This document shows, in pieces, positions 1 through 63,824 of a stretch of DNA of 64,000 bases. The translations under genes were made by a program, and so were the position numbers. The first letter of the stretch is position 1. Every line of letters begins with the position of its first letter. Source of the stretch: Candidatus Bathyarchaeota archaeon. Lineage in GTDB: Archaea; Thermoproteota; Bathyarchaeia; 40CM-2-53-6; RBG-13-38-9. The notes beneath the pieces are model-generated. The model did no database searches, was not told the DNA's origin, and worked only from the letters and a program-made list of their open reading frames with translations. The DNA is taken from assembly GCA_018396915.1 (NCBI GenBank), contig JAGTRD010000003.1, positions 173 through 64,172 on the forward strand. The letters are read 5' to 3'.

Positions 1-682
1 GGCCGAACATGAGGTAGGTTAGGCCGACCTTCCACAACATGGTGTCCATACCAACCTCTCTCCAGCCTGAGGTTCCGTCACGCCTCGAAACCTCAGATTT
101 ACCCCTCATGATGAGGCTGCATATCAGGGCGAAGATCAAGGTCGATGCCCCCAACAACATCCAAGATAATCTCCACCCCCAACCTCCAAACATCTCATTC
201 AACCTAGGCACAATGAACCCCGTCCCTAACAAACCAACTCCACTACCGGAAGCGATCAGGCCCGATGCCGAGCCTCTCCTTCTAGTCGAAACCCATGATG
301 CTGGTAAAGTCATCGCTGAAATGTTGGCTCCACCAGACCCAACCCCAGCAAGACATCTCAAGATAAGAGCCTGAAGAAAATTCTTAGCTAATCCAGTCAA
401 GAGCATCGATGCTCCAACTAGCGTTAAAGATATGGTCATCACGACTCTTGCTCCATATTTTGACGCCAGTAAACCCCCCAAAATTGCGAACACCATATAT
501 CCAGAGAAGTTCCCCGACGCCATCAGACCCATCTGAGTGTAAGACAGCCCAAGACCTTCCTTCATCGAAGGCAGAATCATCGAATATCCGAATCGAGCAA
601 ATCCTAAACTTCCAAGAACAGCTAAATGCCCAGAAAGAATTATTAAGTAAACATGAGGCGTCTCTTCAACCTTACCCATCAT
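1..682 (-). CDS. MFS-type transporter, N-terminal ~227 codons (gene continues past window start)
   Basis: Not in the ORF track because there is no stop inside the window. My reverse-strand translation from ATG 682-680 stays open to base 1: MMGKVEETPHVYLIILSGHLAVLGSLGFARFGYSMILPSMKEGLGLSYTQMGLMASGNFSGYMVFAILGGLLASKYGARVVM...LRCLAGVGSGGANISAMTLPASWVSTRRRGSASGLIASGSGVGLLG. It shows alternating hydrophobic helices and MFS-like loop motifs. Confidence 0.8.
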   Translation of the reverse strand, partial: MMGKVEETPHVYLIILSGHLAVLGSLGFARFGYSMILPSMKEGLGLSYTQMGLMASGNFSGYMVFAILGGLLASKYGARVVMTISLTLVGASMLLTGLAKNFLQALILRCLAGVGSGGANISAMTLPASWVSTRRRGSASGLIASGSGVGLLGTGFIVPRLNEMFGGWGWRLSWMLLGASTLIFALICSLIMRGKSEVSRRDGTSGWREVGMDTMLWKVGLTYLMFG

Positions 683-4802: not shown

Positions 4803-6917
4803 TTGAAGATGAGTGTGGATGAAGGCATGGATCCGCTTGACAACTTCTTCACACCCCGAAGTGTAGCCATCGTAGGTGCCTCATCGAAACCTGGAAAGAT
4901 AGGCCACGAGATTGTAAGAAACATTTCACAGTATGATTATAAGGGTCGGGTATACCCTGTGAACCCGACTGCTGAGTCGATACTCGGGCTGAAATGTTAC
5001 AGGACCATAAGTGATGTTGAAGATTCGGTGGACCTTGCGGTTTTTGTAGCGGCTTCAAACATCTTACCAGAACTTGTTGAGGAGGCTTGCAGGAAGGGCG
5101 TGAGAAACGCGATTATAGTCTCAGGTGGCTTCAAGGAGATGGGTGGCGAGGGGGTAAAGTATGAGGAGCAGATCGTCTCGACCGCCCGGAAATTCGGTAT
5201 GAGGATAATTGGTCCAAACTGTATAGGTGTCTTCGACAGCACAACAAGGCTGGACACGTTCTTCTATCCGCATGACCGAATGGTCAGGCCTCCACCTGGA
5301 GGAGTATCCTTCGTCACTCAGAGTGGCACCTTCGGCCTAACCTTCCTTGAATGGGCAACAAACTCGAGGATGGGTGTGAGGAGGCTCGTCAGCTTGGGTA
5401 ATAGATGTGACGTCAATGAGTTGGACATGCTCAGGTATCTTGGCCGCGATCCATTAACGAAGGTTATCGCCCTACACTTGGAGAGTCTAACTGATGGGAG
5501 GCAACTTGTGAAGGAGGCTAGGGAGGTCTCGTCTAGAAAGCATATAGTGACCTTGAAGACAGGTAGGGTGGAGGAGTCTAAGGCAGCCCTCAGCCACACA
5601 GGGGCGATTACTGGGTCTTACCAGGTTTGCATGTCGGTCTTGAAGGATTCAGGGATGATCCTCGTCGACTCTTTCGAGGAGCTCTTCGACGTGTCGAAGG
5701 CGCTGGAGAAGCAGCCTCCCGCTAAGGGCAGTAATGTTACGATTGTAACAAATGCGGCGGGTCCATCGGTAGCGGCAGCTGACCTATGTCACGAGTATGG
5801 CTTCAATATTGTTGAGTATTCTGAGGGGACCATGAAGAGGCTTCGTTCAACCCTTCCACCATACGCTGTGATAGGGGAGTATGTCGATCTGACAGGTAGT
5901 GCAACAAGTGAAGACTATCAAAAGACATTCGAGATTGTTCTTGAAGAACCTAACATAGACGCCGTAATCTGCTTTGTAGTATTTTTGAATCCCCCTATCA
6001 CACCTGAAGTCATCAAGATCATATCGAATGTACGAAATTTCGGGAAACCGATAGTTTGCTGGGCTACAGGGGGTGAATATTCCCAGAGGCTCATAGAGAG
6101 ACTTGAGGAGGCTGGTATTCCAGTATATCCGACGACTGAGAGAGTCATAAGATCTCTAAGGGGGCTCATAGAGGCTGGTTCTTTGAGAGTCTGGTCTGAA
6201 CCTGAACCTGTCCAAGCCGACAGAGAGAGGGTGGGCAGGATAATTTGCAAAGTCTTATCGGAGGGCCGCGACATGTTGACTGAGCAGGAGAGCAAGGATA
6301 TCCTCAGAGCCTACGGAATTAAGACGACTGTTGAGTATGTAGCGAAGTCTGCGGTTGAGGCTGGGGACCTCGCCTCAAAGATAGGTTTCCCCGTTGTAAT
6401 GAAGATTCTTTCACCAGATATAACGCATAAGTCTGATGTCGGCGGCGTATTGACCGATATTAGAAGTCCCCAGGAGGCGTCTGAGGCTTTCAATGTGATA
6501 GTTAAGAATGTTAGGAGGAGTAGGCCAGAAGCTAGGTTTGAGGGAGTTATAGTTGAGAATCAGCTGCCCAGAGGCGTAGAGGTTCTTGTAGGCGCAACAG
6601 TAGACAGAGACTTCGGTCCTGTCGTAGCCTTCGGCCTCGGAGGCATATTCGTCGAGGCCTTCAGGGACGTCTCTTACGGTTTGGCGCCCCTCTCAGAGAG
6701 TGACGCTTTGAGGGTTATCTCCAGAACAAACGTGGCCAAGCTGCTTTCGGGATTCAGAGGATTTGGACCTGCCGATTTGAAGGGTCTCTCAACCCTTCTG
6801 AGAAGGGTGTCTTACCTGGCTTATGAGCAGCCGATAGTTGAGATGGACCTCAACCCTGTAATCGTCACGTCGAGGGATTGTACTGTTGCAGATGCGAGGA
6901 TAAGGATAAAGGTTTGA
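4803..6917 (+). CDS. acetyl-CoA synthetase (ADP-forming), fused alpha-beta (acetate--CoA ligase, NDP-forming)
   Basis: 704 aa. CoA-binding/SCS-alpha-like N-half (SVAIVGASSKPGKIGHEI, IIGPNCIG) fused to an ATP-grasp C-half (VVMKILSPDITHKSDVGGV). TTG at 4803; the first ATG is at 4809. Confidence 0.9.
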   Translation: MKMSVDEGMDPLDNFFTPRSVAIVGASSKPGKIGHEIVRNISQYDYKGRVYPVNPTAESILGLKCYRTISDVEDSVDLAVFVAASNILPELVEEACRKGVRNAIIVSGGFKEMGGEGVKYEEQIVSTARKFGMRIIGPNCIGVFDSTTRLDTFFYPHDRMVRPPPGGVSFVTQSGTFGLTFLEWATNSRMGVRRLVSLGNRCDVNELDMLRYLGRDPLTKVIALHLESLTDGRQLVKEAREVSSRKHIVTLKTGRVEESKAALSHTGAITGSYQVCMSVLKDSGMILVDSFEELFDVSKALEKQPPAKGSNVTIVTNAAGPSVAAADLCHEYGFNIVEYSEGTMKRLRSTLPPYAVIGEYVDLTGSATSEDYQKTFEIVLEEPNIDAVICFVVFLNPPITPEVIKIISNVRNFGKPIVCWATGGEYSQRLIERLEEAGIPVYPTTERVIRSLRGLIEAGSLRVWSEPEPVQADRERVGRIICKVLSEGRDMLTEQESKDILRAYGIKTTVEYVAKSAVEAGDLASKIGFPVVMKILSPDITHKSDVGGVLTDIRSPQEASEAFNVIVKNVRRSRPEARFEGVIVENQLPRGVEVLVGATVDRDFGPVVAFGLGGIFVEAFRDVSYGLAPLSESDALRVISRTNVAKLLSGFRGFGPADLKGLSTLLRRVSYLAYEQPIVEMDLNPVIVTSRDCTVADARIRIKV

Positions 6918-59946: not shown

Positions 59947-61269
59947 TCAATATAGGGTTTTGAGCTTTTCTCTCCAAGAAGGAAATTCTTCGGGGCTTGG
60001 ATAATTTAGAAAGTGTGTCTTGACTCTTCGCATCCTGTTGGAGACTTCTCTGAGCCTGAGGAGGAACCTCAGTCTACCTATGTTTCTGAGTATTCTTCCA
60101 GCCTTGTCTGTTAGGCTCAGGTTCAGGTCTCCTTCAAGACTCGCCTTTAGAACATCATCCTCCATAACAAGCTTCTGCGCCATCCCGTAATTCAACTCTT
60201 CGTCTGTTAGACTTTGTAGGAAGATTCTGAAGACATCCAATCCAGCCTGTTTGGCACCGTAGGCCGCCATATATTTCAGGTTATAGTTCCAGAGGCCCCG
60301 GCTGGTTGCATCGTTCTTCTCCAGGGCTTCAGCCGCAACCTGGGCTGCTATGGCGCCGCTGATCATCGATGGTCCTATGCCTCCGCCATGTATTGGGTTC
60401 ACGAGGCAGGCGGCGTCTCCTATGAACATAACACCGTCCCCTACCAGACAGTCGAGGGGTCTTCTAGTTGGAACAGTCCCCCCACCTGCATCTTGAACCT
60501 TTGAGTCTTTGAATATCGGTTTATTCAATATGTGCTTGTAGAGTTGGGCTTTAGGGTTTGGATTCTCAATGTTTGCTTGGACCCCAACTCCGACGTTGAC
60601 TTCTCCATTGCTTCTGGGGAAGATCCAGAAGTAGCCTCCCCTAGCAACCTTCTGGTTCAAGTATATGTGGCAGTAGCCTTGCTCAATCTCGACGTTGCTC
60701 CTTACCTCTCTGTAACAGACCATGAGGTCCCTCCTGGACACCTCCCTCTCAACATTGAAACCTTCAGGTAGACTCCGCCTGATGGTTGCTGCAACTCCAC
60801 TCGCATCAATGGTTACTTTTGCCTTCAAGACTCGTCTTCGACCTTGGCTTTGAGTGATTACGCCTTTGACTGTGTTGTTTTCGATGTTCGGGCCGATGAC
60901 AAGGGTTGAATCGACGAGTTCAGCTCCAGAGTCTGTGGCGTCCTTTAGGAGGCGCTGGCCGAAATTGTATCTGTCAACCATGTAACCCGAGACCCCTGGC
61001 CCATCTATGACGAAGACGCTGGAGAGGTCTGGTGAATATATTTTGACGCCGACCATCTTTGAGTCTAACTCATCACCTTTGGGGTGTGGGATCTTTAACT
61101 CATCGAAGTGATGGGAGCCTATGGCGTCGCCACAGACCTTCTCACCTATCTTGACTTTTGGTTTACAATCGATCAAACAAACCTTCAGACCCATCCTAGC
61201 GGCTTTCGATGCTGCTGTGCAGCCGGCTGTTCCAGCTCCGACGACAACAAGATCATATGTATCAGGCAC
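59947..61269 (-). CDS. geranylgeranyl reductase-family FAD-dependent oxidoreductase
   Basis: 440 aa. Motifs: VVVGAGTAGCTAA, FIGDAACLVNPIHGGGIG. Confidence 0.88.
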   Translation of the reverse strand: MPDTYDLVVVGAGTAGCTAASKAARMGLKVCLIDCKPKVKIGEKVCGDAIGSHHFDELKIPHPKGDELDSKMVGVKIYSPDLSSVFVIDGPGVSGYMVDRYNFGQRLLKDATDSGAELVDSTLVIGPNIENNTVKGVITQSQGRRRVLKAKVTIDASGVAATIRRSLPEGFNVEREVSRRDLMVCYREVRSNVEIEQGYCHIYLNQKVARGGYFWIFPRSNGEVNVGVGVQANIENPNPKAQLYKHILNKPIFKDSKVQDAGGGTVPTRRPLDCLVGDGVMFIGDAACLVNPIHGGGIGPSMISGAIAAQVAAEALEKNDATSRGLWNYNLKYMAAYGAKQAGLDVFRIFLQSLTDEELNYGMAQKLVMEDDVLKASLEGDLNLSLTDKAGRILRNIGRLRFLLRLREVSNRMRRVKTHFLNYPSPEEFPSWREKLKTLY

Positions 61270-61376: not shown

Positions 61377-61913
61377 TCATGTCAGATGTAGGAATATCTT
61401 GAGGATCTCGACTGCGACTTGCCCCCTGACGACATTGCCTTTGAGATATGTGTCCCAGAAGTGGGCTATCGAATGGAAGACTGGATCAGGCTCTATATGT
61501 GGTAGAGATATCAAAATGTCATCATCGACCCTGCATATGTCGACGTGAACCCTACATATCCACCTGCTGTATCTGCGTAGCTCAGGATAGTCCTTGGGGA
61601 GGTTGAAGGGGAAACCTATTGGGCAGTAGACGGTTGGGCCTGGATGTCCGAAAGGATCTTGGACAACATGTCTGGTCTCGAAACCGTTCGACTCATATAG
61701 TTTTATGACCTCCTCAACAATCTTCGTATTGTGGTTAAGATACTGTTCTGGAGTTATCTGGAATGTCTGGTAGTAGTAGGTTTCCTTCGTCAAAGGGTCT
61801 TGGAAGCTTGCTGTCGAATAGTAATTTTCAACGTCGACTTTTCTGGGGATCCATGTCCAGTCAACAGGCTGTGTTTGAATATACTCTATTCTAGAGTATG
61901 GTTCCATCCACAC
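61377..61913 (-). CDS. hypothetical protein
   Basis: 178-aa ORF, aromatic-rich, no motif recognised. Confidence 0.45.
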   Translation of the reverse strand: MWMEPYSRIEYIQTQPVDWTWIPRKVDVENYYSTASFQDPLTKETYYYQTFQITPEQYLNHNTKIVEEVIKLYESNGFETRHVVQDPFGHPGPTVYCPIGFPFNLPKDYPELRRYSRWICRVHVDICRVDDDILISLPHIEPDPVFHSIAHFWDTYLKGNVVRGQVAVEILKIFLHLT

Positions 61914-62307
61914 CGCCTACAATCGATACATAATCTAAAATGGTAAACATATTAATTAAGATGTTTTCATCATTTGGATGGCCGGTGCCTATTTATTCTG
62001 TGGCTTCACTCATCCGATATGTGTCTTCAATATCTGGGTGCTTGGCCGGTCATGCCGATATTTAGCCTGGAGATAGGATGCTATGGAAAGTATTCATTTG
62101 ATTTTGATCCATCGAACCTTTTCCAACCCAACAAGACTCACAGACGGGGAACTGACCTAGCTTCATTCCAGCCGGGAACGTGTTTTCAATTAGCTTGCCG
62201 CCGTATAGATTATAGCGTTACTGTTCAACTTGAATGGAGCAGTCAAGAAGGTTATCAGGCCAGATCCTTTGCCGTATTGGGATGGGTTTGGTTTGACGCG
62301 GGTTTGT

Positions 62308-62481
62308 TGGCGCCCCTCGCCAGGGGAGGCCTGCTTGCGCACCCCTTAGGGCGGGATTTGAACCCGCGTCACGTCTCCTCTTCGAACGATGTCGCACGGG
62401 TGACAGCCGTACATTCTAGACCCGCATAGGGCCTACTAGGCCAGACTATACTACCTTTATGCACCTTCTTTGAGGTTGGGC
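62308..62481 (-). tRNA. tRNA-Asp(GUC) gene interrupted by four putative introns, CCA encoded
   Basis: Hand fold of the minus strand. Exons are 62481-62478 GCCC, 62456-62434 AGG UA GUAU AGUCUGGCCUA GUA, 62413-62395 UG UACGG CUGUCAC CCGUG, 62371-62348 UGAC GCGGG UUCAAAU CCCGC CCU, and 62315-62308 GGGC G CCA. Joined, they give a 78-nt tRNA. It has a perfect 7-bp acceptor (GCCCAGG/CCUGGGC), U8, A14, G18G19, U33, anticodon GUC at 62404-62402, A37, G53:C61 and a UUCAAAU T-loop. Exons (78 nt) plus insertions (21+20+23+32 nt) sum to exactly 174 nt. I did not verify BHB splice motifs. Confidence 0.75.
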
Positions 62482-62610
62482 ACGGCCAATCCTAGTCTGG
62501 CCACCCTCCTAATAGATTTAGAAGGAACTTTAAAGCCTTTCGAGTAGCGTTCAGGCTCGTTGATTCGAATACATTTGACGGTGCTCGATTGTTGCTCTTC
62601 TTATAGGCTG

Positions 62611-62647: not shown

Positions 62648-62757
62648 GGGCCCGTAGCTTAGTCAGGTAGAGTACCGGGCTTTTAACAGACTCGGAGGCC
62701 ACCCGGAGAGGTTTAAACCTTGGGTTAGGGTCCCGGGTTCAATTCCCGGCGGGCCCG
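62648..62757 (+). tRNA. tRNA-Lys(UUU) with two introns (canonical 37/38 and variable-loop)
   Basis: GGGCCCG UA GCUU AGUCAGGUA GAGU A CCGGG CUUUUA[15-nt intron 62686-62700]A CCCGG AG[21-nt insertion 62709-62729]GUC CCGGG UUCAAUU CCCGG CGGGCCC G. The acceptor has 7/7 pairs; the anticodon is at 62682-62684. Confidence 0.85.
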
Positions 62758-63408: not shown

Positions 63409-63824
63409 TAGTCCTCGACGCATAAGTCCTGGTCAAAATCATTATTGAGGAGTCGGGCTCCCATGAAGCCAGGGAGATAGTCTCCAGCGCACTCAACAGT
63501 GGAATGGAAGTCATAGCGCCAGATATTGCTCTGTCGGAATCTCTAAACGTTCTGTGGAAACACTGCTTCATAGTCAAGGACTTAAAGTCAGATGAGCTGG
63601 TGGCAGCTGTTGAAGACCTCTTGGCCCTGTGGAATGGTTTGAAGGAGTGCCCCATATGTTCGGTAGCGAGAGAAGTCATCCAGATTGCATCGTCCCTATC
63701 AATAACAGTCTATGATTCAATATATTTAGCGGTGGCTAGATTCTATAAGTCGAGACTTTTCACATTTGACCGGAACCTGGAAGAGGCAGCGTGGAAGCTG
63801 GGTATATCAACGTTACCAGGCTGA
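63405..63824 (+). pseudogene. vapC: PIN-domain VapC toxin gene with in-frame TAA at codon 7
   Basis: ATG ATA GTC CTC GAC GCA TAA GTC CTG GTC AAA... translates to MIVLDA*VLVKIIIEESGSHEAREIVSSALNSGMEVIAPDI... The frame is the same as track ORF 63504-63824. PIN acidic residues are present at D5, YDSIYLAVA and TFD. Confidence 0.75.

Follow-up and report, generated by a model that had tools for sequence, protein, structure and literature searches.

The splice signal of archaeal tRNA introns is a 4-bp helix held between two 3-nucleotide (nt) bulges that contain the splice sites (PMC4090602), the bulge-helix-bulge (BHB), of which the hBHBh′ form has been defined (PMC7714728). In a canonical intron, anticodon nt 34 and 35 sit in the central helix; archaeal tRNA introns range in length from 11 to 129 nt, and most are of 12–25 nt (PMC4090602). 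Three introns have been stated to be the maximum for an archaeal tRNA gene (Kanai, 2015; Popow, 2012; tRNAscan-SE 2.0 paper). The locus considered here lies at 62308..62481 of a 64,000-nt stretch of archaeal DNA (contig JAGTRD010000003.1); this full stretch is called the window, and gene coordinates are given in window numbering, the gene being read on the minus strand. Sequence comparisons identify it, with high confidence, as a working tRNA-Asp(GUC) gene of a Bathyarchaeia archaeon, with four short introns at positions 4/5, 24/25, 48/49 and 68/69.

The closest counterparts in intron number come from Asgard archaea. Introns were reported in 92–95% of the tRNA genes of three Asgard genomes (Valentin-Alvarado et al., 2024; PMC11291895), and Supplementary Data 4 of that study lists four introns in the Freyarchaeia genes for tRNA-Arg(TCT), tRNA-Ile2(CAT) and tRNA-Leu(GAG) and in the Atabeyarchaeia-2 gene for tRNA-Trp(CCA) (PMC11291895); a full-text literature search returned no mention of four-intron archaeal tRNAs in main texts. 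Given these table entries, the window gene ties the tabulated maximum and sets no record, although a preliminary description of the locus, made from the sequence, had suggested a record intron load. The Asgard genes resemble it in being archaeal and in having four introns at mostly non-canonical positions. They belong to another phylum and to other isotypes, and they appear in a supplementary table in which no BHB or conservation analysis was seen, whereas the four-intron state of the Bathyarchaeia gene could be followed through at least 16 sequence variants that show covariation and have relatives with one or three introns.

Three other systems share parts of this organization. The three-intron genes of Thermoproteales (e.g. 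Pyrobaculum calidifontis tRNA-Glu(UUC), P. islandicum tRNA-Pro(UGG)) also carry several short BHB introns, are also from Thermoproteota, and use both canonical and non-canonical sites, including one in the acceptor stem (3/4), but they have one intron fewer, and the window gene belongs to Bathyarchaeia and has no 37/38 intron. In the split tRNAs of Nanoarchaeum equitans and Caldivirga, pairing between flanking leader and trailer sequences builds a helix that presents the BHB, as may happen here; those tRNAs, however, are separate transcripts joined in trans, the leader of one pairing with the trailer of the other, whereas the exons of the window gene are collinear within a single 174-nt gene, and its leader would pair with the D-loop exon. 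The nuclear multi-intron tRNA genes of the red alga Cyanidioschyzon merolae contain BHB introns too, up to three of them, and the stability of the BHBs decides the preferred order of removal; these genes, however, belong to a eukaryotic nucleus, stop at three introns and are in some cases permuted. On the comparisons made here, what is new is the Bathyarchaeia lineage, the Asp isotype, the conservation and covariation of all four motifs, and the series of orthologues with one, three or four introns; the leader and trailer boxes described below also appear to be new.

Architecture of the locus and its splice motifs

The gene is made up of the following segments.

62308..62481, minus strand: whole tRNA-Asp(GUC) gene, G1 at 62481 and A76 at 62308; five exons and four BHB introns
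62478..62481, minus strand: exon 1, GCCC, tRNA nt 1-4; invariant in 16 homologues
62457..62477, minus strand: intron 1, 21 nt, position 4/5; from the BHB scanner, RNAalifold and covariation
62434..62456, minus strand: exon 2, 23 nt, tRNA nt 5-24 (3 nt of acceptor stem and the D-arm)
62414..62433, minus strand: intron 2, 20 nt, position 24/25; from the BHB scanner and covariation; sole intron site of the Type C relatives
62391..62413, minus strand: exon 3, 23 nt, tRNA nt 25-48 (anticodon arm with GUC, variable loop CGAC)
62368..62390, minus strand: intron 3, 23 nt, position 48/49; from the BHB scanner, covariation and the intron ends of Type B relatives
62348..62367, minus strand: exon 4, 20 nt (T-arm and C66, C67, U68)
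62316..62347, minus strand: intron 4, 32 nt, position 68/69; from the BHB scanner and inner-helix covariation
62308..62315, minus strand: exon 5, GGGCGCCA, 8 nt, tRNA nt 69-76

The claim that a tRNA-Asp(GUC) emerges once four insertions are removed is borne out: the joined exons (78 nt) are called tRNA-Asp(GTC) by ARAGORN, and a BHB is present at each of the four junctions. The spliced product has the perfect 7-bp acceptor stem, CUGUCAC anticodon loop and GCCA end previously reported, and G73 and a G10:U25 pair can be read from its sequence. The assembly of the exons is established as correct, because the product is identical at 76 of 78 positions to the spliced one-intron gene of the relative L072 (Type C, below) and at 62 of 78 to an intronless tRNA-Asp of Acidilobaceae. 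The 3′-terminal CCA is encoded in the window gene, and some homologues are without it (GCGCUA, GCGCUU). In the raw window, ARAGORN found no tRNA anywhere, its intron option was also blank for this region, and the Rfam tRNA model missed the unspliced tRNA-Asp, its one match in the window being at 62648..62757 on the plus strand. The Rfam intron families gave no match, and the insertions, at 20–32 nt, are not of the group I or group II self-splicing kind, which run to hundreds of nt and fold as ribozymes; their lengths of 21, 20, 23 and 32 nt lie within the archaeal tRNA intron range. None of the four uses the canonical 37/38 site, and the exons are collinear, on one strand and within 174 nt, as is not the case for a split or permuted gene.

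The span 62481..62308 does divide exactly into the 4, 21, 23, 20, 19, 23, 24, 32 and 8 nt proposed earlier, and introns 1, 2 and 4 lie precisely where they had been placed. The third insertion does not: it had been set at 62372..62394 and sits 4 nt further downstream, at 62368..62390, which gives five exons of 4, 23, 23, 20 and 8 nt. A short repeat (CGAC...TGAC) at this insertion allows more than one register to be drawn, and because of it the register is ambiguous by sequence alone, so that the molecule could not be said to assemble from one set of exons only. The earlier site, 43/44, was rejected because no BHB forms there (CCCG faces GAGA), and was replaced by 48/49; the Type B intron 3, which ends in ..GCGUGUU↓GCGGG (arrows mark cleavage sites), fixes the site at 48/49 without ambiguity. 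Position 44 of the mature tRNA is therefore C and not U.

Splice motifs were sought with a rule in which the 4 nt preceding the last two exon nt pair with the 4 nt preceding the last two intron nt, cleavage being placed after nucleotide 2 of each bulge; this agrees with the BHB as defined in the literature (PMC4090602). The scanner returned a single solution for the gene, with central helices paired 4/4 in all four introns and inner and outer helices of 2–5 bp each. The motifs are as follows.

62477..62457, minus strand: intron 1 BHB, central helix GUGC/GCAU, bulges CC↓A and AA↓A, inner helix ACCU/AGGU (4 bp), outer helix 3 bp
62433..62414, minus strand: intron 2 BHB, central helix CUAG/CUAG, bulges UA↓G and AA↓U, inner helix GCCC/GGGU (4 bp), outer helix 2 bp
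62390..62368, minus strand: intron 3 BHB, central helix UGCG/CGUG, bulges AC↓A and AC↓G, inner helix 2 bp, outer helix ACCCG/CGGGU (5 bp)
62347..62316, minus strand: intron 4 BHB, central helix CGCC/GGCG, bulges CU↓A and AG↓G, inner helix AGGGG/CCCCU (5 bp), outer helix 2 bp

The BHB check of the junctions that had been proposed thus yields an hBHBh′ motif at all four, with intron 3 at its corrected site. The nucleotides used by the motifs are separate (-5..8, 19-27, 37-54 and 61-71), and the four can therefore coexist. The local minimum-free-energy fold of intron 1 is exactly its BHB. Two of the short palindromes pointed out earlier touch these motifs, CUAG in UCUAGA being the 3′ strand of the intron 2 central helix and UGCA overlapping the GCAU strand of intron 1; the other two, UUCGAA and UGCGCA, lie in loops that differ among homologues. 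Four 4/4 central helices with their flanking helices, together with a product matching a relative at nearly every position, cannot be a coincidence.

Relatives, conservation and covariation

The host had been thought of in a Thermoproteales-type setting. It belongs instead to Bathyarchaeia, because the best named relatives of the neighbouring geranylgeranyl reductase (59947..61269, minus strand) are found in metagenome-assembled genomes (MAGs) of Candidatus Bathyarchaeia and because identical or syntenic loci occur in such MAGs. Contigs encoding an identical reductase (GCA_038848145.1, GCA_038870475.1) carry an identical tRNA locus, and syntenic contigs with reductases 90% (ENA) and 81% (GCA_052743835.1) identical likewise contain the gene with these four insertions. 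A scan with a D-arm pattern, using one genome per species, gave 52 loci, and an anticodon-arm pattern scan of metagenomes gave 62 further loci. The same four-insertion gene was found in five further Bathyarchaeia/Bathyarchaeota MAGs (L017, L032, L042, L049, L060), once per genome, and it also occurs in many metagenome contigs. On the question raised earlier of another tRNA-Asp gene, the D-arm scan gave one match per Bathyarchaeia genome, and no second tRNA-Asp D-arm was found in the five that it matched.

The homologues fall into three types with nearly identical exons. Type A, to which the window gene belongs, has introns at 4/5, 24/25, 48/49 and 68/69 (27 loci, 16 distinct genes); Type B has introns at 4/5, 20b/21 and 48/49 (36 loci); and Type C has one intron, at 24/25 (6 loci). 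There are five insertion sites across the three types, and one orthologous gene thus occurs with one, three or four introns.

The 16 distinct Type A genes were aligned with their flanks, and the four-BHB structure pairs in 96.5% of the cells of this alignment, against 30–50% for slid partners. Compensatory changes occur at eight BHB pairs, with at least one such pair in every intron: the inner helix of intron 1 (CG8/UA7), pair 99:122 of the intron 2 central helix (UA10/CG5), pair 145:167 of the intron 3 central helix (CG10/UA5), and pairs 196:216 and 197:215 of the intron 4 inner helix all covary. The intron 3 central helix is found in homologues as UGCG/CGUG, UACG/CGUG or UAUG/CAUA, and the intron 1 BHB was recovered unaided by RNAalifold. 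Cloverleaf pairs hold in 100% of cells and the exons are almost invariant; the intron loops differ in sequence and length, and it is there that substitutions concentrate.

Outside these types, the tRNA-Asp genes of Desulfurococcales, Acidilobaceae and Pyrodictiaceae are intronless or have one 37/38 intron in the D-arm scan. Some of the loci L011, L016, L020, L047, L054 and L062, from Desulfurococcales, Acidilobaceae and Thermodiscus MAGs, have a long 37/38 intron (about 100–190 nt) whose two ends form a GC-rich inverted repeat, GCCCGCCUCCGCCCC ... GGGGCGGAGGCGGG. A tRNA-Asp gene of Nitrososphaerales (L034; JBHICH010000003.1, about 6700..6740) has a 27-nt BHB intron at 68/69, the site of intron 4, with, as read by eye, the same layout (A, a 6-bp hairpin, GCCG, AA) and a central helix CGGC/GCCG; unlike intron 4, it is the sole intron of its gene, and its sequence is unrelated. 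The shared site is either an old common one or the result of recurrent gain.

Promoter, leader box and trailer box

Three further elements flank the gene.

62526..62541, minus strand: archaeal promoter with B recognition element (BRE) and TATA box, GAAAGGCTTTAAAGTT; kept in 15 of the 15 Type A loci examined
62493..62502, minus strand: leader box, GGCCAGACUA, 10 nt; complementary to the D-loop exon sequence UAGUCUGGCC (62439..62448)
62295..62303, minus strand: 3′ trailer box, ACCCGCGUC; complementary to GACGCGGGU, the last intron 3 nt and the T-stem 5′ strand

The promoter was at first sought at about -31 (CTATAGAG), a candidate dropped for the far better conserved GAAAGGCTTTAAAG at -60..-47. 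Its TTTAAA, at 62529..62534, is 53 nt upstream of G1, and TTTAAA starts 53–58 nt before G1 in all 15 Type A genes examined. The usual archaeal spacing from the start of the TATA box to the transcription start is about 30 nt, so the transcript would begin near 62504 with a leader of about 23 nt. Reasoned in the same way, the neighbouring tRNA-Lys gene would have a leader of about 2 nt and Type C genes one of about 7 nt.

This leader is predicted to take part in the first splice motif. It supplies nt -2 and -1, which together with G1 and C2 form the 5′ strand of the intron 1 central helix, and nt -5..-3 of the outer helix, and the helix between the leader box and the D-loop would act as an extension of that outer helix. 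With a 6-nt leader, the ensemble probability of the intron 1 central helix is 0.01–0.07; with a 24-nt leader it is 0.88, and the minimum-energy fold is then the box:D-loop helix plus the exact intron 1 BHB. The 220-nt precursor has a folding z of -3.63. Of 15 Type A genes tested, 11 have a leader box complementary to the D-loop over 10–12 nt (p 0.00–0.03 against shuffles), and the remaining four over 8–9 nt (p 0.06–0.17). Part of Type B has an 8-nt box that tracks the altered D-loop sequence, and the box is not present in Type C, which is without intron 1. When 29 distinct sequences of Types A and B were aligned with a covariance model (CM), 92.4% of the cells of the box:D-loop helix pair, pair 11:78 occurs as GC10/AU8/GU4, and the pair between leader nt -1 and intron 1 as CG15/UA14, figures that lean towards the helix because the alignment was fitted to that structure. 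Type B genes (e.g. L064, L084, L122) show another leader feature about 35 nt before G1, where the predicted leader opens by repeating GCCCAGGU (mature tRNA nt 1-8) in direct orientation; the repeat may be a relic of the origin of the acceptor-stem intron or may pair with the 3′ acceptor strand as a decoy.

The trailer box is found 8–14 nt past the 3′ end, its core, CCGCGU, being invariant in 16 of 16 Type A genes amid variable flanks; it has the form (A)CCCGCGU(C) in the same place in L004, L008, L017 and others. RNAalifold gives a 9-bp helix between the trailer and GACGCGGGU, with an end pair GC8/AU5/GU3. No trailer box was found in Types B and C, and it is thus specific to the four-intron type; the Type B genes L065, L077, L082 and related ones hold GGGUUCGAAUC about 20–35 nt past the 3′ end, a direct copy of part of their own T-arm. 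In the energy model, the trailer box competes with the BHBs of introns 3 and 4, and the probability of the intron 4 BHB falls from 0.75–0.94 without the trailer to 0.04–0.15 with it, the central-helix probability varying with the presence of both intron 3 and the trailer. The idea that the trailer frees the T-stem 3′ strand for the intron 4 BHB was dropped because the energy model gives the opposite, and no conserved fifth BHB involving the trailer was found.

Competing explanations, processing and implications

The unspliced sequence is invisible to standard tRNA finders, as would be expected of a former tRNA-Asp gene broken by four insertions and out of use, and the preliminary description had left this option open. 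A decayed pseudogene is nevertheless very improbable, and we exclude it because the exons and the cloverleaf are conserved, the BHB helices change by compensatory pairs and the loops drift; the BRE/TATA promoter is also kept, and no other tRNA-Asp D-arm was found in the five Bathyarchaeia genomes that the scan matched. It is equally hard to credit that introns 1 and 4 pair across the acceptor stem and leave through a joint, unusual helix and not through BHBs of their own. Both do lie between pairs 4:69 and 5:68, and GUGCAU/GUGCGC and CCUC/GAGG can pair in the window, as had been noticed. This complementarity is not conserved, however: 63.5% of cells pair across the 16 genes, where shuffles give 63.0% and slid controls as much as 69.4%, which is the level of chance. 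The GUGCGC segment of intron 4 lies in a variable loop, each of the two introns has a complete, covarying BHB of its own, as has every intron of the gene, and Type B keeps intron 1 without intron 4. The exons of 4 and 8 nt are short enough to raise the question of chance resemblance or of an assembly artefact, but this is the least credible explanation of all: the same structure is present in independent assemblies from NCBI, ENA, JGI and Logan, and four 4/4 central helices with inner helices would be expected in random sequence at about (0.375^6)^4, below 1e-9 by our own calculation.

A further possibility refines the reading of a working four-intron gene and does not replace it, namely that splicing is strictly ordered by elements in cis. 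The leader box would present intron 1 first, a view that is plausible but tentative, and the trailer box might, with similar reserve, hold the T-stem 5′ strand and so time the removal of introns 3 and 4. In favour of such ordering, the leader box is conserved and covarying and lifts the intron 1 BHB to its high probability, the trailer box is invariant and confined to four-intron genes, and the intron 4 central helix responds to intron 3 and the trailer; yet in the energy model the intron 4 BHB becomes less probable with the trailer, the CM alignment is biased towards the structure to which it was fitted, and the start and 3′ end of the transcript are themselves predicted positions. The two boxes could conceivably be built-in folding guides, a cis-acting RNA chaperone setting which BHB forms and when, although we would put this at somewhat less than an even chance; as far as could be found, such an arrangement would be new for cis-spliced archaeal tRNAs.

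Several points weigh against a working gene with four BHB introns. Nearest-neighbour ensembles computed for the free precursor give probabilities near 0 for the central helices of introns 2 and 3, and the fold with all four BHBs is less stable than the minimum-free-energy fold by about 31 kcal/mol. In the window, intron 3 has an inner helix of just 2 bp, and no splicing endonuclease or ligase was found among the eight reading frames nearest the gene. The surveyed genomes are all MAGs or metagenome contigs, which formally leaves room for a second tRNA-Asp gene, and transcription, its start, splicing and the circular introns are all inferred from sequence. In free RNA, energy favours just two of the motifs, the BHB of intron 1 if the leader is long and that of intron 4 if the trailer is absent. 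With such energies, one has to suppose that the set of four BHBs depends on capture by protein, on folding during transcription or on an ordered pathway; for introns 2 and 3, whose motifs the free-RNA ensemble does not favour, an ordered pathway or protein capture is probably needed. The unfavourable energies of the whole precursor are treated here as a limit of free-RNA models and as speaking for folding that is ordered or assisted by proteins. Experiments on C. merolae have demonstrated ordered removal of tRNA introns, and an ordered pathway is allowed for in the tRNAscan-SE 2.0 paper.

If the gene is expressed as proposed, transcription from the BRE/TATA promoter about 53 nt upstream would yield a precursor with a leader of about 23 nt, the last nt of which would form the central and outer helices of intron 1 while the 10-nt box paired with the D-loop, locking the fold. 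The archaeal splicing endonuclease, EndA, would then cut each bulge after its second nucleotide, and an RtcB-type ligase would join the exons and circularise the introns. RNase P and RNase Z would trim the ends afterwards, and the excision of intron 1 would have to precede removal of the leader.

The surroundings of the gene include a second intron-containing tRNA gene, tRNA-Lys(UUU), at 62648..62757 on the plus strand, divergent and 166 nt from the tRNA-Asp start. One of its two introns, at 37/38 (62686..62700, 15 nt), has a central helix CUUU/GAGG, and the other, at 43/44 (62707..62727, 21 nt), has a central helix ACCC/GGGU with a 6-bp inner and a 4-bp outer helix. The BHB rule fits the 37/38 intron by eye; the scan returned only the 43/44 intron, missing the other because its inner helix is only 1 bp long. 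A TATA-like box is found about 32 nt upstream of G1 of this gene and, at that short distance, the leader would be almost absent. An assignment to tRNA-Ala(GGC) was ruled out, as there is no G3:U70 pair and position 37 is a pyrimidine. On the minus strand, at 61900..61990, a hairpin (CCAUCCA...UGGAUGG) surrounds an AUGAUGA motif and the start codon of a conserved 176/178-aa protein of unknown family (61377..61913), and is possibly a structure of the 5′ untranslated region. Weak matches to small nucleolar RNA-like Rfam families at 61900..61981 were rejected, there being no D box and the hairpin lying over the start codon. A PIN-domain (VapC-like) reading frame lies at 63504..63824 on the plus strand.

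For annotation, the locus means that ARAGORN and the Rfam tRNA model would report no tRNA-Asp in these genomes, which affects their annotation and completeness measures that count tRNAs. The window gene and the Asgard table together make the phrase ‘up to three introns’ out of date, and the range of multi-intron tRNA genes extends from Thermoproteales and two Asgard classes to a widespread archaeal class of sediments, soils and hot springs. The leader and trailer boxes offer a concrete, testable case of flanking sequences that may assist or time BHB recognition, and the series of orthologues with one, three or four introns provides natural material for studying the gain or loss of BHB introns.

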